Assembly: GCA_018064365.1 (NCBI GenBank)
Contig: JAGHVJ010000006.1
Coordinates: 2,058 to 66,057, forward strand
From: Candidatus Enterousia onthequi
GTDB lineage: Bacteria; Pseudomonadota; Alphaproteobacteria; Rs-D84
DNA length: 64,000 nucleotides
Direction: 5' to 3'
The notes under the pieces were generated by a model. The model ran no database searches and was not told the origin of the DNA. It was given only the letters and a program-made list of their open reading frames with translations. Positions 6,155 through 30,694 of the stretch are shown here, in pieces (the stretch's first letter is position 1; every line of letters starts with the position of its first letter). The translations under genes were made by a program, and so were the position numbers.

Positions 6155-6232
6155 AAATCATTGACCGTAACGCATAAAATTATTAATAATAACCACCGTA
6201 GGAATAAAATCTTTAAACAAAAGGACGGAAAA

Positions 6233-12908: not shown

Positions 12909-15011
12909 TTGTATTATAATAAAGCCGTGAAATTAAATCTAGAAAATCTTAATCCTGAACAATTACGTGCCGTCCAAAAAACAGATGGCCCTGTTTTGGT
13001 GTTGGCGGGTGCGGGAACTGGAAAAACACGTGTTTTGACTACGCGCATTGGTTATATTTTAGAACAAAAATTGGCGTTTCCGTGGCAAATTTTGGCACTG
13101 ACTTTTACTAACAAGGCCGCAAATGAAATGAAATCCAGAATTGATTCAATGTCTGACGGTGAATTTATTGCCCGTGACATTTGGTGTGGCACATTTCACT
13201 CTATATGTTTGCGGATATTGCGTTCGAATTACGCAACTGTTGGATTGCGACCAGATTTTTTGATTTATGGCGAAGACGACCAAAAATCTGTTGTTAAAAA
13301 GGTTTTGAACGACCTGAATATTACAACTACAAAAAAGCCATCAGAATACATCGAAGATTTTTCCAGGATAAAGGACCGTGGTTTAACCCAAACACCGTCC
13401 ACAGACCGAATTTTTAACACGTATAACGATGAATTGCGTCGTCTAGGTGCGGTTGATTTCGGCGATATAATTTTATGTGTTTTGAATTTGTTTGAACAAA
13501 ATCCTGCGATTTTAGAGCGTTATCAAAAACAATTCAAATATATCTTGGTCGATGAATTCCAAGATACCAATGTCGCCCAGATGCAGTTGTTAAAATATTT
13601 AACACGTGGTAATGACTGTCCGAATATTTGTTGTGTTGGTGATGACGACCAATCTATTTACTCTTGGCGTGGTGCAGAAATAAAAAATATTCTAGATTTT
13701 GAAAAAACATATCCTGGCACTACTGTGATTCGTTTGGAAACAAATTATCGCAGTACAGGAAATATCTTGGGGGCTGCAAATTCATTGATACATCATAATG
13801 ATGATAGGTTGGGCAAAGATTTACACACGGTTGCAAACGGTGATGACGGTGAAAAAATATATGTGTTCACTTTATCAACCGATTTAGACGAGGCGAAGTT
13901 TATCGCCGACGCAATTATTAAAAATGGCCCGACATATAATGATAAAACAATTTTAATTCGTTCTGGGGCGTTATCTCGTTTGTTCGAAGAAGAATTTGCG
14001 CGTCGTCAAATTCCATATCGTTTAATTGGCGCAACCAAATTCTATGACCGTATGGAAATTCGTGATGTGATTGCGTATATTCGATTACTGGTGCATCCGT
14101 TTGATGATATGTCTTTTTTGCGTGTTATTGGAAAACCTCGGCGTGGTTTTGGGCCATCTGCAATTGAAAAAATGCGTGCGGCAGGCGATAATTTAATGGC
14201 TGGATTGCGTGCGTATTCGTTCCGTGGCAAACAACAAGATACCGCAAACGAGTTTTTATCAGTATTTGATTTTGATTGGGAAAATATGCCACCCCAGGAT
14301 GCTGTTAAAAAATTATTAGATTCATCTGGATACATAAAAATGTGGCAAGAATCCAAAGATGTTGATGCGCATGACCGTATAAACAATATTCACGAATTGG
14401 TAAATTCTGTTGTTGCAAAATACGATTCTTTGCATGATTTTCTGGAACAGGCGGCATTAATGATGACGGATGATAATGATGACCCAGATATATTAAACAA
14501 TAATGCCGTGAACATTATGACGATACACGCGGCCAAAGGATTAGAATTTGATAACGTATTCCTACCCGCTGTCGAAGAGGGTGTTTTTCCAAATGAAAAA
14601 TCAATCCAAGAAGGTTCTATCCAAGAAGAACGCAGACTTGCCTATGTCGCAATAACGCGTGCACGAAAATTTGTTGTTATAACTAATGCGATATCGCGCG
14701 TTATGTATGGCGAACGAAAATATAATGCTCCCAGCCGTTTTATCAGTGAAATAGATTCTTCATTTTTGGTGTTTGGTGATGATGTCGCACGTCCCACCAC
14801 ACGCCCGCAACCACATCACTATACGAATCAAACTTATGAACATAAAAAAAAGTTTGTTGCAGCGCCTCGTAAAACATTGGTTGGCCGTATGGCGCGTCAC
14901 AGTGAATACGGCACAGGTGTTATTATCGAAGAAGGAACCGGAATTTTAACAATCGCATTTGGGACGCGTGGAATTAAAAAAATTGCGCGTGATTTTGTGA
15001 CGGTTTTATAA
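12909..15011 (+). CDS. uvrD: UvrD/Rep/PcrA-family ATP-dependent DNA helicase
   Basis: LNPEQLRAV..AGAGTGKT (Walker A), DEFQDTN, TNYRS and TIHAAKGLEF motifs. TTG or GTG start. Confidence 0.9.
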   Translation: MYYNKAVKLNLENLNPEQLRAVQKTDGPVLVLAGAGTGKTRVLTTRIGYILEQKLAFPWQILALTFTNKAANEMKSRIDSMSDGEFIARDIWCGTFHSICLRILRSNYATVGLRPDFLIYGEDDQKSVVKKVLNDLNITTTKKPSEYIEDFSRIKDRGLTQTPSTDRIFNTYNDELRRLGAVDFGDIILCVLNLFEQNPAILERYQKQFKYILVDEFQDTNVAQMQLLKYLTRGNDCPNICCVGDDDQSIYSWRGAEIKNILDFEKTYPGTTVIRLETNYRSTGNILGAANSLIHHNDDRLGKDLHTVANGDDGEKIYVFTLSTDLDEAKFIADAIIKNGPTYNDKTILIRSGALSRLFEEEFARRQIPYRLIGATKFYDRMEIRDVIAYIRLLVHPFDDMSFLRVIGKPRRGFGPSAIEKMRAAGDNLMAGLRAYSFRGKQQDTANEFLSVFDFDWENMPPQDAVKKLLDSSGYIKMWQESKDVDAHDRINNIHELVNSVVAKYDSLHDFLEQAALMMTDDNDDPDILNNNAVNIMTIHAAKGLEFDNVFLPAVEEGVFPNEKSIQEGSIQEERRLAYVAITRARKFVVITNAISRVMYGERKYNAPSRFISEIDSSFLVFGDDVARPTTRPQPHHYTNQTYEHKKKFVAAPRKTLVGRMARHSEYGTGVIIEEGTGILTIAFGTRGIKKIARDFVTVL

Positions 15012-16292
15012 ATTGTTTTTTACAATATCGCGTGCTTGTTTCCAACGTTTTTTTGTAAGTTCCCACAATTTTTCTGTGTCTTTCTTTACTTTATCGCCCA
15101 GCCCAGATTCGATTTTTCCACCCCAATCAGAAGCCAATTTTTGTGATTTTTCCGCCATATAGCAAACCAACAACAGCGATAAAATCAACAATATTGCGCC
15201 GTCAAATCCGAACCCCGTCAACAGTTGTCCTGTATTTGGATTTACAACAAAAGTCAATAAAGATACAGATACACCTGTTGCCACCGCCAGACATACAAAA
15301 TAAATTGCTGCTTTGACAATGCGTGTAATTTGGGTTTCTAATTTTTCTGCTTTGAATATATCTAAAAAAGAATTAAATATATCCCCAGCAACACCCTTGT
15401 ACTGTGTTTTTGCGGTTGTTTCTGCAATCGCAGTAAACGGCAGCAATAACAAACTTAAAAATATATCTGCGATAACACCCAAGGAAATAAACAAATATTT
15501 CCAAATGTTTTTCAATGCCAAATATGTTATGTATAATCCAATAGCAGACGTGAATAAACTTGCGCCCACACCGGCAACAACCCATTTCCAACCAATTCCA
15601 ATAATCGTTGTAAAAAATGCAGACATTTGTGTTGGTATGCACAATAACCCAGCCGCAGAATCTGCGGTGATTTGCAGGTTTTCTGGTGCGCTGGTTGCGG
15701 CATATTGACGTATTGCTTCGCACGTGTCTGGCAGTTTATATCCCACAACACCAGTGATAGCATCCCATATTGTTGTAGCGATATATGTCCCTGCCGATAT
15801 AATTGGAACCATAATCGTAGTAAAAGCATGGGCAATTCCGAACTTTAATACAATCAACCACGCAGAAATAATCAAACCTTTTTTTAATATGTCTTCTACG
15901 GCTTTTTTTGCATCTCCACCAGAACCGATTAAATGATACGCTTCAAAAGCAATCAAAAACGCGTATGCAATCAACATAAACATAATTGCAAATGTTGCCA
16001 ATGAATTGTCCAATGCTACACCGACACGCGCCATACCGCCCATAAACGCCAGCCCTAATTTTGCCTCTATCGGAACATAACTGTGGGCAACAGTTGTGGC
16101 GGTTGGACCAAAGTTATTTAATTCGTCTACGATTCGACCGGTAACCAAAGAACGATTTTCTTCTGTTGCCCAAGTCCCATAATCACCAATATCCCCAGAC
16201 CCGTATGTTGTATCTGCAAACCCAGGCACTGCGATAAATATTGCAAATATCACAATTAAAATTTTTCGTAAAAAATCACGTGTTTTCATCAT
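15006..16292 (-). CDS. Polytopic membrane protein, member 1 of a 5-gene paralogous family, VirB6/TrbL-like by architecture (putative)
   Basis: Signal or TM at the N-terminus, 6 or more TM helices and a Gly-rich sequence. Similar to the neighbouring ORFs (..IVKAAIYFV.. vs ..VIKAAISVV..). Confidence 0.45.
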   Translation of the reverse strand: MMKTRDFLRKILIVIFAIFIAVPGFADTTYGSGDIGDYGTWATEENRSLVTGRIVDELNNFGPTATTVAHSYVPIEAKLGLAFMGGMARVGVALDNSLATFAIMFMLIAYAFLIAFEAYHLIGSGGDAKKAVEDILKKGLIISAWLIVLKFGIAHAFTTIMVPIISAGTYIATTIWDAITGVVGYKLPDTCEAIRQYAATSAPENLQITADSAAGLLCIPTQMSAFFTTIIGIGWKWVVAGVGASLFTSAIGLYITYLALKNIWKYLFISLGVIADIFLSLLLLPFTAIAETTAKTQYKGVAGDIFNSFLDIFKAEKLETQITRIVKAAIYFVCLAVATGVSVSLLTFVVNPNTGQLLTGFGFDGAILLILSLLLVCYMAEKSQKLASDWGGKIESGLGDKVKKDTEKLWELTKKRWKQARDIVKNNL

Positions 16293-17785
16293 GATATAAA
16301 TCCATTGTCATGCAATCTTTTTACCGCACCATCAAACCATTTGCGTGGTGCATGCCATGCCTTTTGCCCTAAATCGTGGGCCCATTTTCCGATGTCAAAT
16401 TGTTCGCCCGTTCCAACATCTGATTCTTCGCCTGGGATTGGCAATTTAACTTTGCCCGCAGGTAACAAAGCATCAACTTTTGGACTTAATACATAATAAT
16501 ATAACAAGAATAATCCAGCCATCAAAATCAAGAAAGACCACCCATCAGCCAAGAAATCAAATGCGCCTGGGTGTTCGGCTTCGATAATTTGTTTTTGTTG
16601 TTCAAAACAAGGTTTAAATAAATCTGCATCGACCAAACCGTCCGCATCTTTGGATTGTGCCTCGCATACAGAAAATGCGTTCATCACGGATTCTGCCGCC
16701 GGTGTTGTGTTTTGTGTGATTTGTGTTCCGAATAATGGTGGTAACACAGATGTATAACCGTCCACAGGACCTGGGAATGTCGCGTCCGCAGCATAGAAAA
16801 TAATCGCAAATAATAATGCAATTTTTAACGAAATAGATACAACTGAAATTGCGGCCTTGATAACCGTTTCTAATGATTTGCGGAATAATCCTGATGCTGC
16901 TTTCCATACTTTTTCATATGCCAACGCAGCAATTAAAATGGGCAAGAATATAATAACGAAAACGACTTTGAACAAAATCGAGAAAATTTGAAAGAATAAA
17001 TCAAATCCAATAACTAAAAATGCCAGAACCAAGAACAGCCCCGCAATCCATGTCAGCATACCGCCACCCAATCCCAGCCAAGCATAATTCATCAGTGCGA
17101 ATCCACCGGCGGCGCCTGCCAGCATAACAGAATATAAATTTCCAATAACGCACATAAATGAACCAGATACCGCGGCCATTGCACCAGATAATTGGGTCGC
17201 ACCCAAAATAACATTACAATCAGTTGCAGAATTTACACCCGTTGCTACCATTGATAGTGTAGAACCAATATATAAAATTGGCGAAATTAAAATTTCAGAA
17301 ATTACTTTCAAAGATGCAGTGCTATCCAAACTCAATACACCAATCGCAACACCTGCAATCATAATGCGCAACCCCAATTTCCATACTGGTTCAAACCAAG
17401 TTTGAAAATCTATATTATTTGCATTTGCGGTATATTCTGCATTTTTCTTTGATTTTTCCCAAACATATTTTATCGCAGAAATAAACATAAAAATCGCAAA
17501 TCCGGCACCCATTAAAATCCACAAATTGTTCACAATCCCAGACCAAAACATTTCAGATGCCACACCCAACATATCTAATAATTCAACGACATATTTTCCC
17601 AAAAATACAGTGCCGATATTTTCAATCCCGTTATCTGCGCCGATTGCGTGTATAAATCCGTCAACAGATGTATAGGTCAACGCAGAACCACCAATAGATG
17701 AAGATAAATACCAAATGCCCAACCCCAAGGCAACCACTATACCCAGTACTTTTAATCCCAAAGAAATCAATTTAAATTTCAGCAT
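16289..17785 (-). CDS. Polytopic membrane protein, paralog 2 (VirB6/TrbL-like, putative)
   Basis: Multi-TM. 4-nt overlap with the downstream paralog (operon). Confidence 0.45.
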   Translation of the reverse strand: MLKFKLISLGLKVLGIVVALGLGIWYLSSSIGGSALTYTSVDGFIHAIGADNGIENIGTVFLGKYVVELLDMLGVASEMFWSGIVNNLWILMGAGFAIFMFISAIKYVWEKSKKNAEYTANANNIDFQTWFEPVWKLGLRIMIAGVAIGVLSLDSTASLKVISEILISPILYIGSTLSMVATGVNSATDCNVILGATQLSGAMAAVSGSFMCVIGNLYSVMLAGAAGGFALMNYAWLGLGGGMLTWIAGLFLVLAFLVIGFDLFFQIFSILFKVVFVIIFLPILIAALAYEKVWKAASGLFRKSLETVIKAAISVVSISLKIALLFAIIFYAADATFPGPVDGYTSVLPPLFGTQITQNTTPAAESVMNAFSVCEAQSKDADGLVDADLFKPCFEQQKQIIEAEHPGAFDFLADGWSFLILMAGLFLLYYYVLSPKVDALLPAGKVKLPIPGEESDVGTGEQFDIGKWAHDLGQKAWHAPRKWFDGAVKRLHDNGFIS

Positions 17786-17798
17786 AATGATTTACCTT

Positions 17799-19004
17799 TT
17801 ACGACCTCATTTTCTCGATAATAATTTTAGCGGGTTTTTTGATATAGTTATTAGCAAATCCTTTTGTTAAATTCATTAAACTATCGCCAAATTCTTTGCC
17901 AACCGCATTGTCGCTGGCTTGGACTTGGAACATGCCCAAAACAGTCTTTGTAATATTTGGAATATTACTATAAATAAATCCTAGTACATAAACCAAGACC
18001 ACAACACTAATCAGTGTTAAATCGTTTATGCCCGTTTGATTTAAATCTGTTTCAAATACAGTCCCATCCATAATTGCAGCCAACAAAGTATCAAAGTTAT
18101 TTAGATTGCCGTCTGGGTCTGCAAAGAATTTCACAATAATCACCAAAATCACAGTGTATGTAATTATCGCCACCCCCAAAGATATTATAGCACCAACCAT
18201 ATTTTTTATCTGTTCAACACCGACCCCTTTGCCCAGGGATTTTATCCAACTCAACCAATATGGAACATCTGCTGATTCCTTAAATGCAGTGGTAACCAAA
18301 GATAACGGAAAGAAAAATGCAAACATCGCCATGGCGATAATAACATCTATGAAATAACACAAAAATTGGAAAAACATTTTGAAAAACGCCCAAAACAAAT
18401 ACACCCCGATAAATGCCAATAATAAATGTTTTATAAATGCCCCAATCCCCATAAACATAGCCCATGAAAACCCAGTGTCTAACATTGCGACGCCCAGTTT
18501 CATAAACGATTGAAACAAAGTAAGTGTGACTTTTGCGGTATTGATAATAGAATCACGTAATTCTTGTCTGAATATCCCACCAGAATCATCCATCGGTTGT
18601 GGGGTGTATTCAATGTGTTCTTCAATTTGTTCTGGGGTCAATTGTATCATAGCAGATGCATAGTTTTGTGTCACAATAGCCACCGGTTCAAAAGCCACCT
18701 GGGTTATAAAACGTGGCAACATAACCCCCATGCCCAAAAAAGTCAAAGCAAACAAAGAATTTATAAAAACAGGCCGTATAGATTTGTTAAACCAACCATC
18801 TTGAAAGCCTTCCTTCATGTTTTTCCAAACCGCACCAAAAATATAAAACGCAAATATTGCACAGAATAAAATTGTGCAAATAAGAACGAATTTAGGATAT
18901 GCCGCTGCAGCCGCATCTGACACAATTTGAAACATGCGGTCAAATATCGGACAAGACCAACATTGCGCAGTATTATCGATAAAGGATTGTGCCAAATTAT
19001 TCAT
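17799..19004 (-). CDS. Polytopic membrane protein, paralog 3 (VirB6/TrbL-like, putative)
   Basis: The N-terminal motif CWSCPIF before the first TM is shared with 20347..21669 (CWSCQIF). Confidence 0.45.
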   Translation of the reverse strand: MNNLAQSFIDNTAQCWSCPIFDRMFQIVSDAAAAAYPKFVLICTILFCAIFAFYIFGAVWKNMKEGFQDGWFNKSIRPVFINSLFALTFLGMGVMLPRFITQVAFEPVAIVTQNYASAMIQLTPEQIEEHIEYTPQPMDDSGGIFRQELRDSIINTAKVTLTLFQSFMKLGVAMLDTGFSWAMFMGIGAFIKHLLLAFIGVYLFWAFFKMFFQFLCYFIDVIIAMAMFAFFFPLSLVTTAFKESADVPYWLSWIKSLGKGVGVEQIKNMVGAIISLGVAIITYTVILVIIVKFFADPDGNLNNFDTLLAAIMDGTVFETDLNQTGINDLTLISVVVLVYVLGFIYSNIPNITKTVLGMFQVQASDNAVGKEFGDSLMNLTKGFANNYIKKPAKIIIEKMRS

Positions 19005-19006
19005 AA

Positions 19007-20284
19007 TTATCCCTTAAAAAATTTAACAACATTTTTCACCTTGCCAGGCACAGCCTTGGCCATGCCCCATGTTGTTTTTGCATCGCCTTTGACCTGGTTA
19101 TACAATGCGGTTGCGTCTTTGCCGACATATCCTGTCAATTTTTCGCGTGTGATTTCAAATATTTTATTCATTAAAAAGAAAGTCAATAAACAAGATAACC
19201 ATAAAACAGAATGCCCGCCAAATCCACTGGATAAAGAATCCATGCTTGGTAAATTAGAATACGCAACGCCACCCGCTGCTGTGACGAACATACGACTGTT
19301 CCATTGGAACAAAGCGCGCACCAATGCCAAATTTACACACAATATAAATGCACATGCAATCATTGTCACAACCATTTGTTTTAATGCAGTTATAATGCCA
19401 GAAAAAGCAGGCCATATATCAAACCAACTGTCGCTTTTTTTTGCAACCCATGCGGCCACACCAAAAGGATATAAAATCAAAGCCATACCAAAATTAAATA
19501 TCGTTTGAATAATCAACAAAGCCATAAATAAATTGCACCCCGTAAATGTTATAATCAACAAAATACCAGAAATAATATTCATAAAACCTTGACCGCTGTT
19601 GTGCGACATTAATGTGGTTAAAGTACGCAGTCCATTAGACAAATAAGTAAGCCCACGTTTTATTACAGTATTGTTTGCATGAGACAAAACATGCACAGGT
19701 TGAATTAAATATTCACAAGATTCTGTGTCCAACCAACCCTGTGCCATTAAATTTGATGGACATTGCACCGCGCGCATATCTTCTAAATTTACATCAGATG
19801 CAGCCTTCATAATTTCGGTAGTAAACAAAGAACCAAAACTTAAAAAAGGATTAATCAAATGTTTGGTCATAAAATCTGGCCGTAATGGCAACAAAAGTAT
19901 GGCCGCAACCAATACGCGTATTGCAGGTTTTGCAACATTGTTTGCGATTTTCATTCCGTCAGTATTCTCGATAGAATCCCCAGATTTGAATCCAAATGTG
20001 GACATCCAATATTTAGGAACAAATAATTTAATCAAATACAACGCGACATAAAATACAAAAAATCCCCATACTAATAAATAAATTATACCGTCGTGATTTT
20101 GCCCAACGAAATAAGCATAAGTCCCATTTGCAACAAACATAAATGCATCCAGTACAATAGGCACTAATTTTGAAATGTCCAAAGAATCAACATCAATCAG
20201 ACCCCATCCTGCCAACGCCACACTGGGCACGAATGAGCAGAACAATAAAGTGCATCCAATTAAAAATTTTTTAATACAATTCAT
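19007..20284 (-). CDS. Polytopic membrane protein, paralog 4 (VirB6/TrbL-like, putative)
   Basis: Signal peptide. Motif IRVLVAAILLLPLRP matches IRVLFVGALLLVPLPR in 20347..21669. Confidence 0.45.
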   Translation of the reverse strand: MNCIKKFLIGCTLLFCSFVPSVALAGWGLIDVDSLDISKLVPIVLDAFMFVANGTYAYFVGQNHDGIIYLLVWGFFVFYVALYLIKLFVPKYWMSTFGFKSGDSIENTDGMKIANNVAKPAIRVLVAAILLLPLRPDFMTKHLINPFLSFGSLFTTEIMKAASDVNLEDMRAVQCPSNLMAQGWLDTESCEYLIQPVHVLSHANNTVIKRGLTYLSNGLRTLTTLMSHNSGQGFMNIISGILLIITFTGCNLFMALLIIQTIFNFGMALILYPFGVAAWVAKKSDSWFDIWPAFSGIITALKQMVVTMIACAFILCVNLALVRALFQWNSRMFVTAAGGVAYSNLPSMDSLSSGFGGHSVLWLSCLLTFFLMNKIFEITREKLTGYVGKDATALYNQVKGDAKTTWGMAKAVPGKVKNVVKFFKG

Positions 20285-20346
20285 CTCTTATAATATTATT
20301 ATTGTAATTATAACATAAATCGATAAAATTATGTTATAATTAAAAT

Positions 20347-21669
20347 ATGAATTGGCTAAAAAAATTTTGGATAGTTTTTACATCTTTCTTGCCGTTTTCA
20401 GCAGGGGCTTTTTCGCCACTTTTAATTGGTGGAATTGCGTTTGGCGGTGGAATAATTGGGGTTTCTATTTGGCGCAATGTGTCCCCTGTAAATATGTCTG
20501 ACGCATTATCTTTTTTTTCCAGTTGTTGGTCATGTCAAATTTTTTCAGATGTTGTCGCAACAATGTCAAATATTATTCCTGTGACCTATAAATCTTTGGG
20601 TGGTATAATAATACCATTTGCAATTGTTTTGACAGCAGTATGGTTTGCGTGGCAATTATTGACATTGTTTATCACGCCCGGTCAAGATAAACAGATAAAT
20701 AATTTAGGGTGGAGTCTTGCAGGACAATGGGGAACTCATGTTATTCGTGTTTTATTTGTAGGGGCATTGTTGCTTGTTCCATTACCGCGAATGATTTCAT
20801 CTGTTGTACTGGAACCTGTGTTTAATATTGGTTTGTCTATGAATTATACAATGTCTGTGGCTGATGCTCGCCAGAACTATGCAAATTGCATAATTGCAAC
20901 TGCGGTCTCGGATGTGTCTGCAACCCGGACAGATACTGCAAATCCTGGTATAAATGCATTTTCACCGCGATTTCGTCATAACTTAACATGTCAAATTGCA
21001 AATATACATCAAATGACAGGTTTGGGAATGACAATTGGTTGGACAATGTTAAATATGGCGTTTAACTATGATTATATGCATAAATTGATGTGGGGAATAC
21101 CGATTTTTCCCAATGTGCCATTGATATTGACGGGGCTTTTGATATTGGCGCTGTATTTATCTGCATTATTGCCGATACCATTATATTTCTTGGAAATATT
21201 TATCAAATTATCTATTGATTTTGTTTTGTTGCCATTGACACTGTTATCGTGGATATTCAAAGGTTGGAAAATATTTCCGTCTGGCAAGGGAAATATAAAA
21301 CAAATCATAGATGATGTTATTTCTGGTGTTTTAGGTTTGGCAATGACGGGCATATTTATAACATTTTCAATAATGTTGTTAAATGCGGCTTTTGGTAATT
21401 GGAAAGGTGCATCTGCATTACAAACTGCGATTACCCAAAACGATTCGAAAATTTTAATAGATTCGTTAATGTCCACCACAGGCAGTAAATCTCTGATAAC
21501 CATAATATTGATGGGGATATTTATGACTATGTTTATGGTGATGATACCTGCATTGATAAAGTCGTTATTTAACATAACAGTATCTGATAAATACTATCAA
21601 ACCGCAAAAAAAGATATAAATTTATTGTGGAATGGCGCGAAAAAGTGGTGGTCTGCCGCAAAAAAATAA
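20347..21669 (+). CDS. Polytopic membrane protein, paralog 5, divergently transcribed (VirB6/TrbL-like, putative)
   Basis: Shares the CWSCQIF and IRVLF..LLLVPLPR motifs with the paralogs on the opposite strand. Confidence 0.45.
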   Translation: MNWLKKFWIVFTSFLPFSAGAFSPLLIGGIAFGGGIIGVSIWRNVSPVNMSDALSFFSSCWSCQIFSDVVATMSNIIPVTYKSLGGIIIPFAIVLTAVWFAWQLLTLFITPGQDKQINNLGWSLAGQWGTHVIRVLFVGALLLVPLPRMISSVVLEPVFNIGLSMNYTMSVADARQNYANCIIATAVSDVSATRTDTANPGINAFSPRFRHNLTCQIANIHQMTGLGMTIGWTMLNMAFNYDYMHKLMWGIPIFPNVPLILTGLLILALYLSALLPIPLYFLEIFIKLSIDFVLLPLTLLSWIFKGWKIFPSGKGNIKQIIDDVISGVLGLAMTGIFITFSIMLLNAAFGNWKGASALQTAITQNDSKILIDSLMSTTGSKSLITIILMGIFMTMFMVMIPALIKSLFNITVSDKYYQTAKKDINLLWNGAKKWWSAAKK

Positions 21670-21735: not shown

Positions 21736-22248
21736 GTGATGAAAAAGTTTCCGATTCTTTATTGGCCACGCAAAACGACAGACGATGCAGAATATCAATT
21801 GTCGCGCAAGGTTATAAATAATGCGACTGGCACAATGCCTGATGTAATATCAGATAATCTGGATTTAGACGCGATAATGAACGAAAACCCAGATTCTGTG
21901 GTTTATTATCCGGTATTTTGTGGCTCGACCGGTTGGTGGGGCGAATTATTGGGCGCGAACGCGGTTGTGGTTGATAAAATGATAATTTCTCCGGAATGCC
22001 AACTGATGGTGATTCAGTCTGATAAAAACGCGAATTCATCTGGTTCAAACCAGTTATTGGCGGCGGAAATATACCCCAGCAGTGGTTTTTTCAAGAAAAT
22101 GAATTCATCTATTGCAACTGTGGCGGATATGTTGGCCACGGATGCTGGTACAATTTTGGCATTGTTTTCTGGTCGTAATCCAAATAAATTTGTAAATATC
22201 TTGGAATCGACTGGAAATTCATACCTGGGTTGTATCGGTCGATATTAA
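21736..22248 (+). CDS. Hypothetical protein
   Basis: ORF only. No recognisable motifs. Confidence 0.35.
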   Translation: MMKKFPILYWPRKTTDDAEYQLSRKVINNATGTMPDVISDNLDLDAIMNENPDSVVYYPVFCGSTGWWGELLGANAVVVDKMIISPECQLMVIQSDKNANSSGSNQLLAAEIYPSSGFFKKMNSSIATVADMLATDAGTILALFSGRNPNKFVNILESTGNSYLGCIGRY

Positions 22249-23887: not shown

Positions 23888-24397
23888 TTGTATATGTTGC
23901 AAATGAAACTTTGTGGTGACCCAGTTTTACGCACAGAATGTTCGCCTGTGACCAGAATCGACGGCGAATTGTTGAAAACCATGGATACAATGGTTGAAAT
24001 GATGCGTGAACAAAGTGGCGTTGGACTTGCCGCACCCCAGGTTGGCATTACAGAACGTTTTTTGGTTATGATGACACCGGACGATGAACGGATTTTCAAA
24101 ATGATAAATCCTCGGATTATATCGCACAGTGATAAAAACTGTGTGATGGAGGAGGGCTGTTTATCTGTTTTGGGTGGCGATAATTTACCTGTTTATGCAA
24201 ATGTGACGCGTCCTGAATCTGTGATTGTGGAATGGACTGATGAAAATGGTAAACAACAAAGTGCGGAAATGTCCGGTGTGCCGGCACGCATCGTGCAACA
24301 CGAAACAGACCATTTGGACGGAAAATTGTTTGTCGATTATTTGTCTGGCGCGCGCCGTGAAATGGTTATGCGCAAGGTGCGGAGGCATAAAAAATGA
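23888..24397 (+). CDS. def: Peptide deformylase
   Basis: GVGLAAPQVG, EGCLSV and HETDHLDG motifs. Confidence 0.9.
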   Translation: MYMLQMKLCGDPVLRTECSPVTRIDGELLKTMDTMVEMMREQSGVGLAAPQVGITERFLVMMTPDDERIFKMINPRIISHSDKNCVMEEGCLSVLGGDNLPVYANVTRPESVIVEWTDENGKQQSAEMSGVPARIVQHETDHLDGKLFVDYLSGARREMVMRKVRRHKK

Positions 24398-25200
24398 AAT
24401 TAATTTTAATGGGAACAAATGATTTTGTTGTGCCTGTATTTGAATCTTTGCGAAAAAAACACGACATTTTGTCTGTGTTCACGCGCGCACCAAAACCGAC
24501 TGGTCGTAAACAGATTTTGACCCCGTCGCCTGTGCATGTTTGGGCAGAATCACATAATATCCCTGTGCATACATCTATTCGTGATTTTGATGGAATGGTG
24601 GCTGATTGTGTGTTTGTAATGTCGTATGGCGTGATTATACCTGATGATATTTTATCTCAATCCAGGTTTATAAATATTCACCCCAGTAATTTACCAAAAT
24701 ATCGTGGTCCATCACCAATCAGAACTGCAATAAAAAATGGCGATAAAACCAGTGCTGTTTGTTTAATGCAAATGAATCACGATTTAGATGCGGGCGATAT
24801 TTATATGTGTCGCGAATTTGATATAGATTTAAATGACACAAATGAAATTGTGGAAAATCGTGTTGCAAATATTTCAATCGAAATGTTGGACGAATATTTT
24901 TCTAATCCAAACGCGTTTTTGCCTAAAAAACAAATTGGCATGCCGACATTTACACATAAATTTACAGGTGCTGATGAAATCATAGATTGGAAAAAAACTC
25001 CAATTGAAATTCATAATTTAGTGCGCGCATTGGGGGCTGGACGGACAAAAATAAATGGCATAGATGTCAAAATATTAAAAACAACACTGGAAAATGGAAA
25101 TTTACAAATATTGGAATTACAACCGGCGGGCAAACGCTCAATGGATTGGAAAAGTTTTGTAAATGGTCTGCAAGGTGCAGACATAAAATACGGAGAATAA
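24394..25200 (+). CDS. fmt: Methionyl-tRNA formyltransferase (short form, 268 aa)
   Basis: MKLILMGTNDF..HPSNLPKYRGPSPI. 4-nt overlap with def. Confidence 0.85.
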   Translation: MKLILMGTNDFVVPVFESLRKKHDILSVFTRAPKPTGRKQILTPSPVHVWAESHNIPVHTSIRDFDGMVADCVFVMSYGVIIPDDILSQSRFINIHPSNLPKYRGPSPIRTAIKNGDKTSAVCLMQMNHDLDAGDIYMCREFDIDLNDTNEIVENRVANISIEMLDEYFSNPNAFLPKKQIGMPTFTHKFTGADEIIDWKKTPIEIHNLVRALGAGRTKINGIDVKILKTTLENGNLQILELQPAGKRSMDWKSFVNGLQGADIKYGE

Positions 25201-25237
25201 TTGTATGCGTAAAAAAATACGGGGAGTAAAGAAAAAA

Positions 25238-25444
25238 ATGAGTAATAATATTCAATTTGCAAAATGTGGTGTGTCTGGCGAATTTGTTATTATATCAAAA
25301 TACAATGCAAAATGTCCATGCTTGAATTGTTCTGGGTGTGATAATCAACCATGTGGGTGGCGATATGTGTTGCAAACAGACCCATGTACAAACGACGATA
25401 TCCGCGAAGTATTATGTGCAAATTGTATGGCAAAACAAAGATAA
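25238..25444 (+). CDS. Small Cys-rich protein, tandem paralog 1
   Basis: RBS GGGGAG. Motif CG..x..VIISKYN..CPCLNC...C...C and a C-terminal CMAKQR. Confidence 0.55.
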   Translation: MSNNIQFAKCGVSGEFVIISKYNAKCPCLNCSGCDNQPCGWRYVLQTDPCTNDDIREVLCANCMAKQR

Positions 25445-25463
25445 AACCAAAAAGGATACAAAA

Positions 25464-25724
25464 ATGGCAGAAGAAAAAATTTGTGGATATTATAAACATT
25501 CTGTTAGAATATCTGAGTATAACAAACACGGAAGTTGCCCTTGTTTAAATTGTGATAAAGATACATGCGATGACGAATGTCACGCCAGTTTGCATCCTGT
25601 ACTTATATCTGCCAAGTGTCTTTCGGGCAGAATATGTTGGCGACATGATAGATGTAAGGATTGTCTGGATTTTTCAGAACAATATTCTGCACCTATTAGT
25701 ATAATAACACGGAAACAAAGATAA
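25464..25724 (+). CDS. Small Cys-rich protein, tandem paralog 2
   Basis: RBS AAAGGA. ICGYYKHSVRISEYNKHGSCPCLNC. C-terminal ..RKQR. Confidence 0.55.
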   Translation: MAEEKICGYYKHSVRISEYNKHGSCPCLNCDKDTCDDECHASLHPVLISAKCLSGRICWRHDRCKDCLDFSEQYSAPISIITRKQR

Positions 25725-25728
25725 TAAG

Positions 25729-25935
25729 ATGCAAAAATTTTTAAATACATTATGCGGATTACACGCATCTAATGTTGTTATATCAGAACACAACAATAAC
25801 GGCTCGTGCCGGTGTTTGGGGTGTGTGGGGATTTCTTGTCAGAATTGTCAACAATATCAGAATTTATTAGACGAGGCAGATAAAAACGATCAAATAAAAT
25901 TGGAACGCTGTATTGCATGCATGAGACAAAGATAA
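25729..25935 (+). CDS. Small Cys-rich protein, tandem paralog 3
   Basis: LCGLHASNVVISEHNNNGSCRCLGC. C-terminal CIACMRQR. Confidence 0.55.
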   Translation: MQKFLNTLCGLHASNVVISEHNNNGSCRCLGCVGISCQNCQQYQNLLDEADKNDQIKLERCIACMRQR

Positions 25936-25951
25936 AAATTTAGGATAAAAA

Positions 25952-26695
25952 ATGACACGCTATAAAATTGCATTAGAATACGATGGAACGAATTTAATTG
26001 GCTGGCAAGAAAACTTGGACGGCCCGTCTGTTCAATCTATTCTGATGGATGCATGCGAACAATTTTGCGGCTTGCGTCCAACTATATTTGGCGCAGGGCG
26101 GACAGATTCTGGTGTTCATGCAATATCTATGACTGCGCATTTTGATTTGGAACGTGATTATGATGCTGATACAGTTATGCGTGCATTAAATTTTTATTTG
26201 TTAAAACAGCCCGTATCGGTTTTGTCTTGCGAAATTGTTGATGAAGATTTTCATGCTCGCTTTTCTTGTGTTGCGCGTCATTATAAATATGTCGTGTTAA
26301 ATCGCGCTTCTGCGCCCGTTCTTGAAAAAAACAGGGTATATTGGTTTCCTCAAAAATTAGATGTTGAATCAATGCGTGTCGCTGCCAAAAAATTATTAGG
26401 CCAGCATGATTTTACATCTTTTCGTGCCGCCCAATGCCAAGCCAAAAGTCCGATAAAAACACTCGATAAGTTAGATATTACTGTTGATGGCAATCATATA
26501 ATTTTTGAATTGTCTGCACGTTCGTTTTTGCACCATATGGTTCGCAACATTGTTGGCACATTGTTAGAAATCGGTGTTGGTAAACCATATGATATTGATG
26601 AAATATTATCGGCAAAAAATCGCAGTACCGCCGGTCCCACCGCACCGGCATCTGGATTATATTTTATTCGTGCGGATTATCCCACCAACGACTAG
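25952..26695 (+). CDS. truA: tRNA pseudouridine(38-40) synthase
   Basis: YDGTNLIGWQ..GAGRTDSGVHA (catalytic Asp region)...HHMVRNIVG. Confidence 0.9.
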   Translation: MTRYKIALEYDGTNLIGWQENLDGPSVQSILMDACEQFCGLRPTIFGAGRTDSGVHAISMTAHFDLERDYDADTVMRALNFYLLKQPVSVLSCEIVDEDFHARFSCVARHYKYVVLNRASAPVLEKNRVYWFPQKLDVESMRVAAKKLLGQHDFTSFRAAQCQAKSPIKTLDKLDITVDGNHIIFELSARSFLHHMVRNIVGTLLEIGVGKPYDIDEILSAKNRSTAGPTAPASGLYFIRADYPTND

Positions 26696-28709
26696 TCGGT
26701 GTGTATTCTATTTTTCCAGATTTATAAATTACGAAACCATTACGCAAAATTTTGTGATTGCATTTTGGTCCAGATATATCAAAATACGATACGATAAAAT
26801 CAATGTCATCATCACGACATAATTTCACAATATTTTTATGCAATGGAACAAATTTTTGGATATACGCCACAGTGAAATTTTCGGATTTATAAATACAAAT
26901 GCCGTCTGGACATTTGCGCCGAACATTTTTATCAGATGGCGGTTCATTGTTTAATTGTCTAAATGTGTTAAAAGCAAAATAATGATTAGAAGCACGCGCT
27001 TTATTAAATTCTAGTTTACCGTCATACACCATGCCAACCAATTCGTGGTCGCTTGTTGCATAAAATACAGGCGTTTGTCGGGTCGCAATAATTATGACAC
27101 CAATTATAATACATACGCCAAACAATAAATAATTTGCACGACGATAAATCCAAAGTTTTGCTTTCATCAGTGGTTTTACCAAAATTAAAAACATCAAACC
27201 CAATACGAATATAACAAATGCACTTGTTGGAATATGCGGTATGATAATATTAGATGCAGGCCAATCAGCAATTTTCTGCGCGATTCCCAATGCAAAATTA
27301 TAAACAACCATTGCGTAATCTAATAACATATGAAAACCAAATCCAGAGCATAATGTTCCAATCAAAACCATGGGCATAATTGCAAACGAAAATATCGGCA
27401 GTAATATTAAATTGCCAACCAAACTATACAGTGGCACAGAATTAAAATGTGTTGCGATAAATGGCAATGTGAATATTGTTGCAATAACAGAGGTCATAAT
27501 TGCTGCATAAAATCCATTTTTTATTTTTTCTAAACGACTTTTGTTTTCAAAAGTTTGCCCGTCAAAAAACCAAATCAAACCAAATATAGCGGCAAAAGAT
27601 AATTGAAATCCTACCTGGGTTACGAAATGAGGATTTACAAAAAACAAAATTAAAAACGCGATTGAAATATTTCGCATAGACACAGCGTTTCGTCCCAATA
27701 ACAAAGCCAAAAATAACACAGTTGTCATCAAAAACGCGCGCCATGTCGCGACCCCGAATCCAGAAATGCAAACATATAAAAATAATATCAGCCACGCACA
27801 AATTGTTGCTGTATATCGCGCAGGAATTCGTCGTGTTAAAAATCCGCATGCGCGTAGAATAAAATAGAAAATTGCAAACAACCACCCACCAATCAAAGTC
27901 ATATGAAAACCACTGATTGACCAAATATGCCCAACACCTGCGGTTGTCCAAATATTGCTATCTGGGATTGGAACGGCATTTTTATAGCCCAACACCAAAC
28001 CGTCGGTTAAAAAAGAATTTGCCGCATTGTGAATTTTATTACGAAACCCGTTTACATTAAATGCATCGTCGTGCGACAAAATTTGATAATCTGTCATAAA
28101 TCCATTTGCAGTTAAATTATTAAAATATGCCCACCGTGCATAATCAAATGTTTCTGGTGCTTCGATTTTAGCAGGCGCAAACAAGAAAGCACGGCCAGAA
28201 ATTATATCTCCGATTTCAGGACGGTTTGTATCATCTGAAATTGTGACCCGAACATTAGCATTTTTTGCTAAATTTAAATCAGATGCATTGACTTGCAATA
28301 CCAACCTTGTTTTGTTATCTGATTCATCTATATCTATAACCGTAGCGGTAATGTTTTTATCGCGTACATCATATTTTAACACAGGTGTCCCAACTATAAA
28401 ATGCGTATAAAATATTGCATACGAAAACCCGAATATAAACAGCATAATGGCACGCAGAATCAAATTCTGTTTGTTAAATAGTAAAAGTATGATACTGACA
28501 ATAAACGCCAATCCGATAAATTTAATGTTTGGTTCAAATGGTAATATGAAATATAAACCTGCGCCCAATGCTAATAACATTGGCGACCATAAAAATTTAT
28601 TTTTTAATTGTTCTGATAAAAAATCACGCATGTATGAATTATAGGAACGAAAGTTCTGTGCGCAACCATTATTTTCCAAATATAAAATCAGGGTCAGCAG
28701 CCAAGGCAA
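26664..28709 (-). CDS. comEC: ComEC/Rec2-family DNA internalisation membrane protein (no beta-lactamase domain)
   Basis: N-terminal TMs, then a periplasmic OB-like segment, then a multi-TM competence domain (..GFQLSFAAIFGLI..). The start is uncertain. Confidence 0.75.
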   Translation of the reverse strand: MPWLLTLILYLENNGCAQNFRSYNSYMRDFLSEQLKNKFLWSPMLLALGAGLYFILPFEPNIKFIGLAFIVSIILLLFNKQNLILRAIMLFIFGFSYAIFYTHFIVGTPVLKYDVRDKNITATVIDIDESDNKTRLVLQVNASDLNLAKNANVRVTISDDTNRPEIGDIISGRAFLFAPAKIEAPETFDYARWAYFNNLTANGFMTDYQILSHDDAFNVNGFRNKIHNAANSFLTDGLVLGYKNAVPIPDSNIWTTAGVGHIWSISGFHMTLIGGWLFAIFYFILRACGFLTRRIPARYTATICAWLILFLYVCISGFGVATWRAFLMTTVLFLALLLGRNAVSMRNISIAFLILFFVNPHFVTQVGFQLSFAAIFGLIWFFDGQTFENKSRLEKIKNGFYAAIMTSVIATIFTLPFIATHFNSVPLYSLVGNLILLPIFSFAIMPMVLIGTLCSGFGFHMLLDYAMVVYNFALGIAQKIADWPASNIIIPHIPTSAFVIFVLGLMFLILVKPLMKAKLWIYRRANYLLFGVCIIIGVIIIATRQTPVFYATSDHELVGMVYDGKLEFNKARASNHYFAFNTFRQLNNEPPSDKNVRRKCPDGICIYKSENFTVAYIQKFVPLHKNIVKLCRDDDIDFIVSYFDISGPKCNHKILRNGFVIYKSGKIEYTPTSRWWDNPHE

Positions 28710-28983
28710 TTATTGTATCCATATCGTCAGAGTCAGACGCTTTTTGCCGAATTGTCTTGCCACATTTTTCGCATTTATGGGTAATAACAAAATGGCCGGC
28801 CGATTGTTCTACACAAACAGGTGCCATCATACCGCCACAATCACTTTGTCTGTCCCCAGGATTGTTATCAACATGTCGCGACCATAGGCATTTTGGACAA
28901 TGGTTTGTATAACCATTTCCATGCACAACTGCGCCACAATGGGCGCAGTTAAAATCTTCTATACGTTTTATGAATTGTTTCAT
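28669..28983 (-). CDS. RNHCP-domain Cys-rich protein
   Basis: FNCAHCGAVVHGNGYTNHCPKCLWSRHVDNNPGDRQSDCGGMM. Confidence 0.6.
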   Translation of the reverse strand: MKQFIKRIEDFNCAHCGAVVHGNGYTNHCPKCLWSRHVDNNPGDRQSDCGGMMAPVCVEQSAGHFVITHKCEKCGKTIRQKASDSDDMDTIIALAADPDFIFGK

Positions 28984-28986
28984 ATA

Positions 28987-29235
28987 TTAAATACCTAATG
29001 CATCACGATACATTTTGGTCAATTCGTCCGCCTCGTCCAGTTCATCAGGGTCCAATTTACGCAACCGTATCATTTGACGAATGTATTTCGGGTCATATCC
29101 CGCAGATTTAGCCTCGGAATAAACTTCTTTGATATCCGCAGCAATGTTCGCAGTATCTTCGTTTAATTTTTCAATTCTTTCAATAATAGACAATAATTGT
29201 TGATTATCAAAAGCACCATGATTTGCATTTTTCAT
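28987..29235 (-). CDS. gapR: GapR-like (DUF2312) nucleoid-associated protein
   Basis: QLLSIIERIEKLNEDTANIAADIKEVYSEAKSAGYDPKYIRQMIRLRKLDPDE. The start was moved to MKNANHG (29235). Confidence 0.8.
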   Translation of the reverse strand: MKNANHGAFDNQQLLSIIERIEKLNEDTANIAADIKEVYSEAKSAGYDPKYIRQMIRLRKLDPDELDEADELTKMYRDALGI

Positions 29236-29323
29236 GTTTGTTTTCCCCTTGTTAAATTTACAATAATATAATATATTATTTACGACAAAAATCAAGAAAA
29301 AGCAAATCCAGGGGGAATGTTTT

Positions 29324-30694
29324 ATGATAAAATTTACAAAAATCACTGCATCTATTGGGCCAAAATCTGACGCTCGTGCTGTTTTAACAAAAATGATACA
29401 ATCTGGGACAAATTTGTTTCGCATAAATTTCAGTCATGATACCGGTGATGTCCAAGGGAAAAAAATCGATACGATTCGAACTGTGTCGCGCGAATTAAAA
29501 ACACCTGTGGCTGTTGTTGTAGATTTACAGGGCCCCAAACACCGTATTGGGAATTTTGCAACCGAAGATAAATACAAACTTACCATCGGACAAAGGTTTA
29601 TATTTGATTCAGACGAAACACCGGGCGACAATACGCGTGTATGTTTGCCACATCCTGATGTTATTGCGTCATTGCATGTCGGCGACAGAATTTTATTAAA
29701 TGATGGAAAAATAGAAATGCGTGTTGATAGAACAGAACCAACAAAGATTATTGCTACGGTTGTGCGTGGCAACGAAATCTGGTCGCGTCGTGGTTTTAAT
29801 TTGCCGGACACTTTTGTTGACTGCAATGTTTTAACGGAAAAAGACCGTGCTGATTTAGAATATGCAATCACAAAAAATCCAGATTATGTTGCTGTGTCTT
29901 TTGTTCAAACAGCGGATGATATTGCGTATGTTCGTGATTTTATAACTGCGCGCACGGCGCATAAAATAAAAATCATTGCAAAAATAGAACGCCCGCACGC
30001 GGTACATAACATAGAAGATATTGTTTCTGCATCTGATGGCATAATGATTGCGCGTGGTGATTTGGCGGTTGAAATGCCGTTTGAACAAGTTCCTGCGATT
30101 TCGCGTCATATAATTCGTGTATGTCGTCAAATGAATAAACCTGTAATTGTTGCAACGCAAATGTTGGCATCGCTTGTTGATGGAGAATTTCCAACACGTG
30201 CAGAAATTAGTGATGTTGCAAATGCGGCATATTTGCGTGCAGATTCTTGTATGACATCCGAAGAAACTACGATTGGTATAAATCCTGTGAATACAATTCA
30301 AACGATGTCGCGTATTTTGTCTTATGCAGATATGGATTCAATCGCAAATCCAAACGATTGGTTGCGTACAGAAAATGTTCCAGAAAACAATTGGTCGCGT
30401 TCTGTTGCGTCTATGGCATATTTGAATAACGCGTCTGCGATTGTTGTCTTTGATAGGGACGGTATTGCCACAACTGAAATTTCGTGCCGTCGCCCAGATA
30501 TGCCGATTATTGCGGTGTGTGATGATGAAACAATTGCAAATCATTTGTGTTTGAACCGTGGTGTGTTTCCGATTTTTGCCCCCGAAATATTTGGCCGTCG
30601 TGATACAGACGCGGCTGTGAAAACGTTAAAAATAAAAATTGGTAATGTTGTAATTGTTGACGAAGGAACAATCAGTTTGCGTGAATTGAATTAA
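29324..30694 (+). CDS. pyk: Pyruvate kinase
   Basis: KITASIGPKS..FRINFSHDTGD..MIARGDLAVE. Confidence 0.9.
   Translation: MIKFTKITASIGPKSDARAVLTKMIQSGTNLFRINFSHDTGDVQGKKIDTIRTVSRELKTPVAVVVDLQGPKHRIGNFATEDKYKLTIGQRFIFDSDETPGDNTRVCLPHPDVIASLHVGDRILLNDGKIEMRVDRTEPTKIIATVVRGNEIWSRRGFNLPDTFVDCNVLTEKDRADLEYAITKNPDYVAVSFVQTADDIAYVRDFITARTAHKIKIIAKIERPHAVHNIEDIVSASDGIMIARGDLAVEMPFEQVPAISRHIIRVCRQMNKPVIVATQMLASLVDGEFPTRAEISDVANAAYLRADSCMTSEETTIGINPVNTIQTMSRILSYADMDSIANPNDWLRTENVPENNWSRSVASMAYLNNASAIVVFDRDGIATTEISCRRPDMPIIAVCDDETIANHLCLNRGVFPIFAPEIFGRRDTDAAVKTLKIKIGNVVIVDEGTISLRELN

Follow-up and report, generated by a model that had tools for sequence, protein, structure and literature searches.

A stretch of 64,000 nucleotides from Candidatus Enterousia onthequi (Alphaproteobacteria, Rs-D84; GenBank assembly GCA_018064365.1, contig JAGHVJ010000006.1, positions 2,058 to 66,057 of the forward strand; the whole stretch is referred to below as the window) contains three small open reading frames (ORFs), ORF1 to ORF3, which fill the slot between the genes fmt and truA (Table 1). 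A preliminary description of this DNA had listed them as three tandem paralogues rich in cysteine, and both their position and their Cys counts were upheld. The proteins (7.5-10 kDa, balanced charge) consist of 12-13% cysteine, compared with 1.3% for the long ORFs of the window, and the probability of finding at least eight Cys in 68 amino acids by chance is ~3e-6 per ORF. Their mutual identity is 34-40% (38-40% for ORF2 and ORF3 versus ORF1 in the alignment of the three, and ~34% elsewhere for ORF1 versus ORF3), and seven of the 18 invariant columns of the alignment are cysteines. Signal peptides had been reported as absent; indeed, neither a signal-peptide-like nor a transmembrane-like hydrophobic stretch was detected in ORF1-3 (maximal Kyte-Doolittle value over 15 residues ≤1.29), and the proteins are cytoplasmic as judged by their sequences.

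Table 1. Features of the def-fmt-[array]-truA region (positions in the window; aa, amino acids; nt, nucleotides; SD, Shine-Dalgarno).
Feature	Position	Strand	Description
def	23888-24397	+	Peptide deformylase; NCBIfam NF001159/TIGR00079, E ~1e-44 to 1e-47; first gene of the operon context
fmt	24394-25200	+	Methionyl-tRNA formyltransferase; TIGR00460, E=2.9e-53; upstream boundary of the slot
Duplicated junction	25185-25229	+	AAAATACGGAGAATAA (25185-25200, 3' end of fmt) repeated as AAAATACGGGGAGTAA (25214-25229)
Spacer fmt to ORF1			37 nt
SD-like GGGGAG	25221-25226	+	11 nt before ORF1
ORF1	25238-25444	+	68 aa, 9 Cys; subtype A, with x2 spacing in N-x2-C-x-C-L-x-C-x2-C
Junction motif ACAAAGATAAAA	25435-25446	+	Last two codons of ORF1, stop and following bases; repeats D5, D7
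Spacer ORF1 to ORF2			19 nt
SD-like AAGGA	25452-25456	+	7 nt before ORF2
ORF2	25464-25724	+	86 aa, 10 Cys; subtype B, with an extra Cys pair (...SAKC..GRICW...) and a 19-residue tail past the last CxxC
ORF2 end ACAAAGATAATA	25715-25726	+	
Spacer ORF2 to ORF3			4 nt
ORF3	25729-25935	+	68 aa, 8 Cys; subtype C (CGLHA..VVISEHNNNG.C.CLGC....C..CQQY..LLDEA......KLERCI.C)
Spacer ORF3 to truA			16 nt
SD-like AGGA	25942-25945	+	Upstream of truA
truA	25952-26695	+	tRNA pseudouridine 38-40 synthase; TIGR00071, 181 bits, above the cut-off of 142.85; downstream boundary of the slot

The common Cys pattern that had been noticed in the three proteins was borne out by careful alignment, both of ORF1-3 and of 82 members of the family to which they belong. 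We refer to this family as Cys8. Its signature, C-x6-V-x2-S-x2-N-x(2|4)-C-x-C-[LFIM]-x-C-x(2-6)-C-x(2-9)-C-x(16-32)-C-x2-C, was matched as a strict regular expression by 75 of the 82 members and persists down to ~25% identity. N22, C27, C37, C40, C61 and C64 (here and below in ORF3 numbering) are invariant in the 82-sequence alignment, and C9, V16, S19, C29 and C32 are conserved in at least 90% of the sequences; the conserved non-Cys positions are V16, S19, N22, G25 and L30, and within each subtype the whole length is kept. A profile hidden Markov model (HMM) of the family recognized ORF1 (E=7e-16), ORF2 (E=1e-15) and ORF3 (E=3.5e-22) and revealed no further copies in the window.

The proteins had been considered unassignable to any known family, which held in searches against Pfam, NCBIfam, PHROGs and the PDB sequences. 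ORF1-3 gave only noise with Pfam, NCBIfam and PHROGs, and among the Pfam matches listed for the 82 members no family was matched by more than two of them and none significantly. A word-indexed search of 5.8 billion proteins returned 20 unnamed clusters, and when 1.84 billion cluster representatives (50% identity) were searched exhaustively with the HMM, 68 matched at E≤1e-3, nearly all of 60-100 aa. For 61 pairs of orthologues (60-97% identity), the Nei-Gojobori ratio of nonsynonymous to synonymous substitution rates (dN/dS) had a median of 0.145 and a maximum of 0.68, a sign of purifying selection; furthermore, subtype-C orthologues are 75% identical where Fmt of the same genomes is 76% identical. 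The low dN/dS, the Fmt-like conservation and the retention of the cysteines down to 25% identity argue that ORF1-3 are translated, constrained proteins. On this sequence evidence, they are genuine genes of a lineage-restricted family that has not been described before. Members of the family are probably under-annotated: a divergent one (MSEQFCRYKQQTVIISEYSLDCPCCGC...NQR) lies at 3560-3777 of locus L050 between two called genes and was missed by the source gene finder. A phage origin of the family was rejected in view of the noise-level PHROGs matches and of scans of viral contigs, which gave one chance match with stop codons and no tblastn relative.

Every Cys8 member that could be placed is located in a def-fmt-[array]-truA slot. 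The placed loci include L001-L012, obtained via protein look-ups, and L013-L017, found in GTDB genomes with the subtype-C alignment. A blind scan of the Joint Genome Institute (JGI) metagenomes with a hand-made degenerate DNA pattern gave 30 matches; eight were chance matches (such as TG repeats), and the remaining 22 were true members, all 22 of them between fmt and truA. The genomes carrying the family are metagenome-assembled genomes (MAGs) of uncultured Alphaproteobacteria (rumen, UBA series) and Candidatus Enterousia sp. The hosts are gut bacteria of the order Rs-D84 (Candidatus Enterousia and relatives). Enterousia, which belongs to this order, has a genome smaller than ~1 Mb, possesses neither the tricarboxylic acid cycle nor respiration and presumably relies on other cells (PMC12306168). 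TruA of the array-bearing loci is 69-86% identical to that of the window; the identity to P0089 (TruA by its NCBI name) is 86%. Fmt of the window is short (268 aa): it covers only positions 1-247 of the 315 of the TIGR00460 profile and scores 181 bits, below the cut-off of 201.5, and its C-terminal tRNA-binding domain appears to be reduced, as far as the profile coverage indicates. Fmt orthologues in the related loci match PF00551; Fmt has the same length of 268 aa in L048, a relative that lacks the array.

Across the 35 loci in which the fmt-truA interval is complete, 0-4 small Cys-rich genes occupy the slot in the collinear order F3-F2-A-B-C-other; A, B and C denote Cys8 subtypes, f1 any other Cys8 member, and cys? 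a small ORF that has five or more Cys but belongs to no defined class. The architecture A-C is present in eight loci; F2-A-C-f1, F3-F2-C and cys?-C in three loci each; A, f1, F3-C, f1-cys? and cys?-cys?-cys? in two loci each; and A-B, F2-A-C, F2-A-B-C, C-f1 and cys?-f1 in one locus each. The window (ORF1, ORF2, ORF3) is the only locus with A-B-C, and two loci possess no array at all. Orthologues of ORF1 (subtype A; 52-65% identity) occupy the first array position in L001-L008, L013-L015, L021, L022 and L039, orthologues of ORF2 (subtype B) the second position in L001 and L013, with P0003 and P0006 being near-identical to ORF2. Subtype C is the most widespread one and usually the last before truA; its members in most related loci are 49-79% identical to ORF3. 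Overall, the identity of orthologues by subtype ranges from ~35 to 79%, those of ORF2 being the most divergent. The preliminary description had taken the three genes for a locally amplified family, and this is the part that failed if a recent expansion is meant: the copies share only 34-40% identity, and separate sets of orthologues, one for each copy, occupy the corresponding positions in other genomes. The divergence between ORF1-3 and the matching positions of their orthologues rather point to a collinear array of old age from which genes were lost differentially.

Wherever Cys8 members occur, they adjoin truA and are coupled to it. They are absent from L048 and L049, whose intact TruA is 76% identical to that of the window; there, fmt abuts truA as TAATG (near position 4001 in L048) without any small ORF in between. 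Since such close relatives do without it, the array is dispensable, and L048/L049 represent a natural 'knock-out' lineage for comparison. L050 and L051 (TruA 75% identical) contain three very divergent members, one of them missed by the gene caller.

The genes F2 (~78 aa) and F3 (~91 aa), which are absent from the window, form a second superfamily of the slot with four invariant or near-invariant Cys (Cys4). It is confined to alphaproteobacterial MAGs, and searches with the Cys4 families retrieved no named homologue. The F2 pattern is ICFYCKHFFCT.YH.PR.R.VCSG.LPQW...DTCKKF...QR and the F3 pattern is WC.NCV.F...LC...CGHC.KFS..KKI..LK.WLLK..GF.FKNKVR; F2/F3 genes can be seen in the slot of e.g. 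L013 (5220-6220), L016 and L017 (5445-6190) and L047 (2850-3595). Common ancestry of Cys8 and Cys4 is not supported (hhalign probability 0.4%). An F2-like Cys4 domain and a Cys8 domain are fused in single ORFs in P0041, P0048 and P0051, which suggests that the two kinds act together.

The genes of the slot are tightly packed. The 3' end of def overlaps the start of fmt, stop codons and the ATG that follows them are a median of ~3 nt apart across the loci, and some pairs overlap as ATGA. No terminator-like site is present between the array genes of the window, and promoter-like matches are no commoner there than in shuffled controls. This arrangement marks the array genes as coupled to their neighbours. 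The statement that each of the three genes has its own ribosome-binding site (RBS) applies to ORF1 (GGGGAG) and ORF2 (AAGGA); ORF3, starting immediately behind ORF2, is preceded only by purine runs of the AAGA type. The SD-like site of ORF1 lies in the second copy (AAAATACGGGGAGTAA) of a direct repeat, D4, of 16 nt with 88% identity and a spacing of 29 nt, whose first copy encodes KYGE and the stop codon of fmt. The repeat looks like a junction duplication and hints at the source of array growth. A longer version of ORF1 (79 aa, from the in-frame ATG at 25205) is less likely: the start was kept at 25238 because the seemingly conserved 'RG' of the extension coincides with the SD sequence (GGGGAG/AGAGG) of the internal ATG and because the relatives are called from the internal start.

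The three proteins end in AKQR (ORF1), RKQR (ORF2) and MRQR (ORF3), which had been described as a basic (K/R)QR tail. The QR ends are present in all three, but their interpretation as a purely basic protein motif did not survive the finding of AGA/AGG codons before the next start. Across the family, the last residue is R or K in 75 of 82 members, with QR in 35 of 82, and it follows the last CxxC at a distance of 3-19 residues. Because this distance varies, it is the stop codon rather than the domain that fixes the position of the tail. The F2 and F3 proteins, unrelated to Cys8, likewise end in R. At the nucleotide level, the 12-mer ACAAAGATAAAA at the end of ORF1 recurs without any change at the end of ORF3 (25926-25937), in spite of the low identity of the two proteins. 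The terminal Arg is encoded by AGA or AGG in 41 of 45 genes, compared with 51 of 173 internal Arg codons (29%) in the same genes (Fisher test, p=2e-14, counting related sequences as independent); in 38 long ORFs of the window these two codons make up 9% of the Arg codons, CGT and CGC being dominant. The terminal Arg codon is situated 0-7 nt before the next start in most genes, and AGG is found there only where the next ATG follows 3-7 nt past the stop (9 of 9). Note also that, runs of A/T only set aside, no 5-mers rank above AAAGG and AAGGA in front of the gene starts of the window. The use of rare AGA/AGG and their position before the next start indicate that the tail is partly a footprint of the translation-initiation signal of the next cistron.

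The tail as a pure SD artefact was rejected, as Gly and Glu, whose codons are equally SD-like, seldom form the last residue (E 2/82, G 0/82). Terminal Arg is encoded as CGA in four genes, in three of which the next start is at least 10 nt past the stop. Furthermore, ORF2 and truA possess SD-like sites of their own within spacers of 19 and 16 nt, respectively, yet ORF1 and ORF3 end in ...ACAAAGATAAAA, so the SD footprint is not the full explanation. The scarcity of Gly/Glu, the retention of Arg as CGA and the independent SD sites of ORF2 and truA imply that a basic last residue is probably selected at the protein level as well.

A first AlphaFold2 run for ORF3 with 23 aligned sequences was too weak for use (predicted local distance difference test, pLDDT, of 63). 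With 82 sequences, a compact model (m0d6ea553830a) was obtained with a pLDDT of 87.3 and a predicted template modelling score (pTM) of 0.68, in which C37xxC40 and C61xxC64 mark the starts of two predicted helices (41-52 and 59-66, respectively). These helix starts in the model resemble treble-clef zinc sites. Foldseek with this model retrieved nothing from the PDB and nothing meaningful from BFVD, and the modelled Cys8 domain possibly represents a new fold. The family profile, compared with all PDB sequences, gave as its sole hint the FYVE domain 6w9n on the same Cys columns (E=1.9, not significant). The spacing C29-x2-C32-x4-C37-x2-C40-x20-C61-x2-C64 is that of ligands 3-8 of the PHD/FYVE cross-brace fingers and would therefore be consistent with a cross-braced pair of Zn(Cys)4 sites. 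In more general terms, conserved Cys in sets of four with CxxC at a knuckle or at a helix N-terminus, as in structural Zn(Cys)4 sites, are found here too. The proteins had been proposed to bind a metal or to form disulfides. The eight invariant or near-invariant Cys and the CxxC motifs at the modelled helix starts favour the former, and metal binding appears to be the most reasonable reading of ORF1-3; disulfide bonding is unlikely, considering their cytoplasmic location in an anaerobe.

The closest known kind of protein seems to be the prokaryotic small zinc-finger µ-proteins, exemplified by the C(P)XCG proteins HVO_2753 and HVO_0758 of Haloferax volcanii (PMC11241148, PMC10716476). Like Cys8, the Haloferax µ-proteins are cytoplasmic single-domain proteins of ~60-90 aa with CxxC-type pairs (four pairs in some of them), mostly without an assigned family and with roles that are pleiotropic or unknown. 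However, there is no sequence relationship, and instead of the C(P)XCG knuckle Cys8 has the signature C...V..S..N..CxCLxC...CxxC...CxxC; moreover, Cys8 is bacterial, restricted to Rs-D84 and arranged collinearly within a single slot of an operon. Eight metal ligands within ~60 residues are also a feature of FYVE, PHD, RING and B-box domains. In Cys8, a lone Cys and a CxC replace the first CxxC pair of FYVE, the WxxD, R(R/K)HHCR and RVC motifs are missing, and the loop reads SE(H/Y)NNNG instead of RRHHCR. PF01363 (FYVE) was not matched by ORF1-3 and by only one of the 82 members (E=0.42), and the FYVE or B-box Pfam models by one or two of the 82 members at E≥0.017. The ligand pattern of PHD and RING fingers (C4HC3, C3HC4) is absent: the 82-sequence alignment contains no conserved His column, and there is no such family among the Pfam matches listed.

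Similarities in cysteine spacing extend to chaperones. The redox-switch zinc centre of Hsp33 consists of CxC-x27-32-CxxC, and the Cys-rich domain of DnaJ consists of four CxxCxGxG repeats binding two Zn. The Cys8 spacing C27-x-C29...x31...C61-x2-C64 fits that of Hsp33, but this is numerological only and comes with no profile similarity. With DnaJ the family shares eight Cys in ~70 residues and, by prediction, two Zn, but the GxG repeats are absent. Furthermore, the Cys8 proteins stand alone and are not domains of chaperones.

The absence of obvious modification enzymes near the three genes, as noticed in the preliminary description, was confirmed: no maturase is encoded within ~10 kb of ORF1-3, and a Pfam and NCBIfam scan of the neighbours gave no match to radical S-adenosylmethionine (rSAM), YcaO or Lan proteins. 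The genes around the slot are those for RmuC, a HAD hydrolase, ComEC, an RNHCP-domain protein, GapR and pyruvate kinase (pyk), and five membrane proteins. These five polytopic membrane proteins are encoded in tandem at 15006-21669 (428, 498, 401 and 425 aa on the minus strand, 440 aa on the plus strand). They have 5-7 transmembrane-like segments each, include two weakly paralogous pairs (28% and 22% identity), match no Pfam or NCBIfam family and are kept at the same place in L001, L002 and L006. They are followed by an ORF of 170 aa at 21736-22248, again without a Pfam or NCBIfam match. Three further ORFs are without a Pfam match, two of ~735 aa (6895-9102 and 9972-12182) and one of 190 aa (6161-6733). 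Just past comEC, at 28669-29424 on the minus strand, lie the genes for the RNHCP-domain zinc protein (104 aa) and the GapR-like DNA-binding protein. The latter is listed with 145 aa in the window; as the gene is called with 82 aa in the relatives, its true start is probably internal to this ORF.

Taken together, we interpret ORF1-3 as real metal-binding Cys8 mini-proteins encoded in an accessory, coupled array, and assign a probability of about 0.6 to this statement as a whole. Two metal sites of tetrahedral geometry, most likely Zn(Cys)4, would form the core of each protein, with the eight Cys cross-braced (C29, C32, C37, C40, C61 and C64, completed by C9 and C27). The array would consist of accessory genes that keep to one slot of the def-fmt-[array]-truA operon in reduced-genome gut Rs-D84 and that have a transcript in common as well as translational coupling among themselves and with truA, and the ...QR end would have two causes, a basic last residue favoured at the protein level and the purine-rich AAAG(A/G) before the next start codon. 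Several points weigh against parts of this interpretation, in addition to the reservations about the codon test and about the SD sites of ORF2 and truA mentioned above. The assignment of individual cysteines to the metal sites derives from their spacing, and both the identity of the metal and its stoichiometry we infer. No core function of TruA or Fmt depends on the array proteins, because L048 and L049 manage without them at a TruA identity of 76%. Finally, vertical inheritance in a narrow lineage, TruA of which is 69-86% identical to that of the window, may by itself account for the linkage to fmt and truA, without any functional tie.

As to function, we tentatively suggest, as a possibility rather than as an expectation, that the proteins are zinc-stabilised adaptors or regulators that bind other proteins and are not metal stores. 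Different paralogues would then offer different binding surfaces, and a possible target is the co-expressed machinery of translation start or tRNA maturation. An adaptor is preferred to a metal store because the constraint on non-Cys residues and on whole subtypes is like that of housekeeping proteins, because the paralogues are ancient and because fusions join the two Cys-rich families. Generic nucleic-acid binding appears to be disfavoured, as the balanced charge together with two [ZnCys4]2- centres would render the proteins neutral to acidic.

Metal storage deserves attention nevertheless. Bacterial metallothioneins (SmtA/BmtA) are small Cys-rich proteins with a zinc-finger-like core, a metal-thiolate cluster of high capacity (~4 Zn per protein) and a copy number that can vary, and Cys8 shares with them the small size, the richness in Cys (12-13% in ORF1-3), the variable copy number (0-4 in one slot) and, by prediction, the binding of zinc. 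The proteins might thus sequester or donate zinc or other thiophilic metals, or serve as a thiol redox buffer, with the copy number tuning the capacity. The recruitment of two unrelated Cys-rich families to one slot would fit, as would the presence in the same operon of the gene for peptide deformylase, which is a metalloenzyme. However, the paralogues are old, subtype-specific in sequence and free of recent amplicons, non-Cys residues and whole subtypes change as slowly as a housekeeping enzyme does, and the model shows a defined helical fold. Moreover, the Pfam model for bacterial metallothioneins was not matched by ORF1-3 at E up to 10, nor does it occur among the 25 most-matched families listed for the 82 members, so that buffering of this kind is improbable. 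Iron in place of zinc, either as rubredoxin-like Fe(Cys)4 or as an Fe-S cluster, would turn the proteins into electron carriers or oxygen sensors of a strictly fermentative anaerobe, which eight conserved Cys and a host lineage that is anaerobic and lacks respiration would allow. Weak matches to Fer4_20 (E=0.017) and Fer4_21 (E=0.07) would point the same way, but they are limited to one of 82 members each and at noise level; neither the ferredoxin pattern CxxCxxCxxxCP nor the rubredoxin knuckles CxxCG/CPxCG occur in the family, and CxxC at helix N-termini, as in the model, would be typical of structural zinc sites. Iron-binding mini-proteins are accordingly quite unlikely.

A more specific variant, which overlaps with the adaptor reading, is that the proteins are dedicated partner subunits of TruA or Fmt. 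Small zinc-binding subunits of RNA-modifying enzymes exist: Nop10 is a partner of the pseudouridine synthase Cbf5, and Trm112 of several methyltransferases. They resemble Cys8 in size, in their zinc-ribbon-type Cys and, for Nop10-Cbf5, in the connection with a pseudouridine synthase, which for Cys8 is genomic only (truA). Coupling of truA to the array gene before it is almost universal (-4 to +7 nt from stop to start), the adjacency to truA is kept even for the most divergent members (P0020, P0041), and the lineage's Fmt has an apparently reduced C-terminal domain. Against this, L048 and L049 combine the lack of any array with a normal TruA (243 aa) and an Fmt of 268 aa, both of the size usual in this lineage, and the length of TruA is independent of the array (243 aa also in L050, which has one); there are several divergent paralogues and not a single subunit, and the family shows no homology to Nop10 or Trm112, with neither PF04135 nor PF03966 among the Pfam matches listed. 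We therefore hold this variant to be hardly probable. It is less probable still that the proteins are exported effectors or signals in cell-cell interaction with the basic C-terminus serving as an export or recognition tag. Such an idea could draw on the occurrence of this terminus in unrelated families of the slot, on a genome of less than 1 Mb in a lineage thought to depend on other cells, and on the five paralogous polytopic membrane proteins 3-10 kb upstream; but the proteins have no signal peptide, no secretion-system component was recognisable among the scanned ORFs of the window up to 29.4 kb, the genes reside inside a housekeeping operon, and the codon and spacing data largely explain the tail. 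Finally, short Cys-rich ORFs in tandem superficially resemble precursors of sactipeptides or ranthipeptides, i.e., of ribosomally synthesized and post-translationally modified peptides (RiPPs), and genes that callers sometimes miss, as at L050 3560-3777, could be spurious. The conserved neighbourhood in the 35 loci encodes no maturase, protease or transporter (rmuC, def, fmt, truA and comEC recur), the proteins are conserved over their whole length with a confidently predicted fold (pLDDT 87) and without a split into leader and core, and non-coding ORFs are excluded by the dN/dS of 0.145 and the conservation of the cysteines; this last pair of explanations can practically be dismissed.

Going beyond the adaptor reading, one may speculate that the slot holds a modular Rs-D84 toolkit of Cys8 and Cys4 mini zinc proteins which dock via their basic C-terminus on a target in translation start or tRNA modification, or on a partner cell, and which would constitute a new class of accessory factors kept by ultra-reduced genomes, with Cys8 as a new zinc-finger fold; we regard this as a rather long shot. 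The tail illustrates neatly that a seemingly conserved C-terminal protein motif can be moulded by the ribosome-binding signal of the following cistron. With Cys8, which is missing from Pfam, NCBIfam and the PDB, the little-studied small zinc proteins of bacteria gain a new sequence family and perhaps also a new fold. Genomes smaller than 1 Mb keep little that is not needed, yet here a slot in a core translation/tRNA operon holds up to four constrained Cys-rich genes. Should binding to Fmt, TruA, tRNA or the ribosome be demonstrated, translation in this uncultured, host-associated lineage of human and livestock guts would turn out to involve accessory factors of a new kind.

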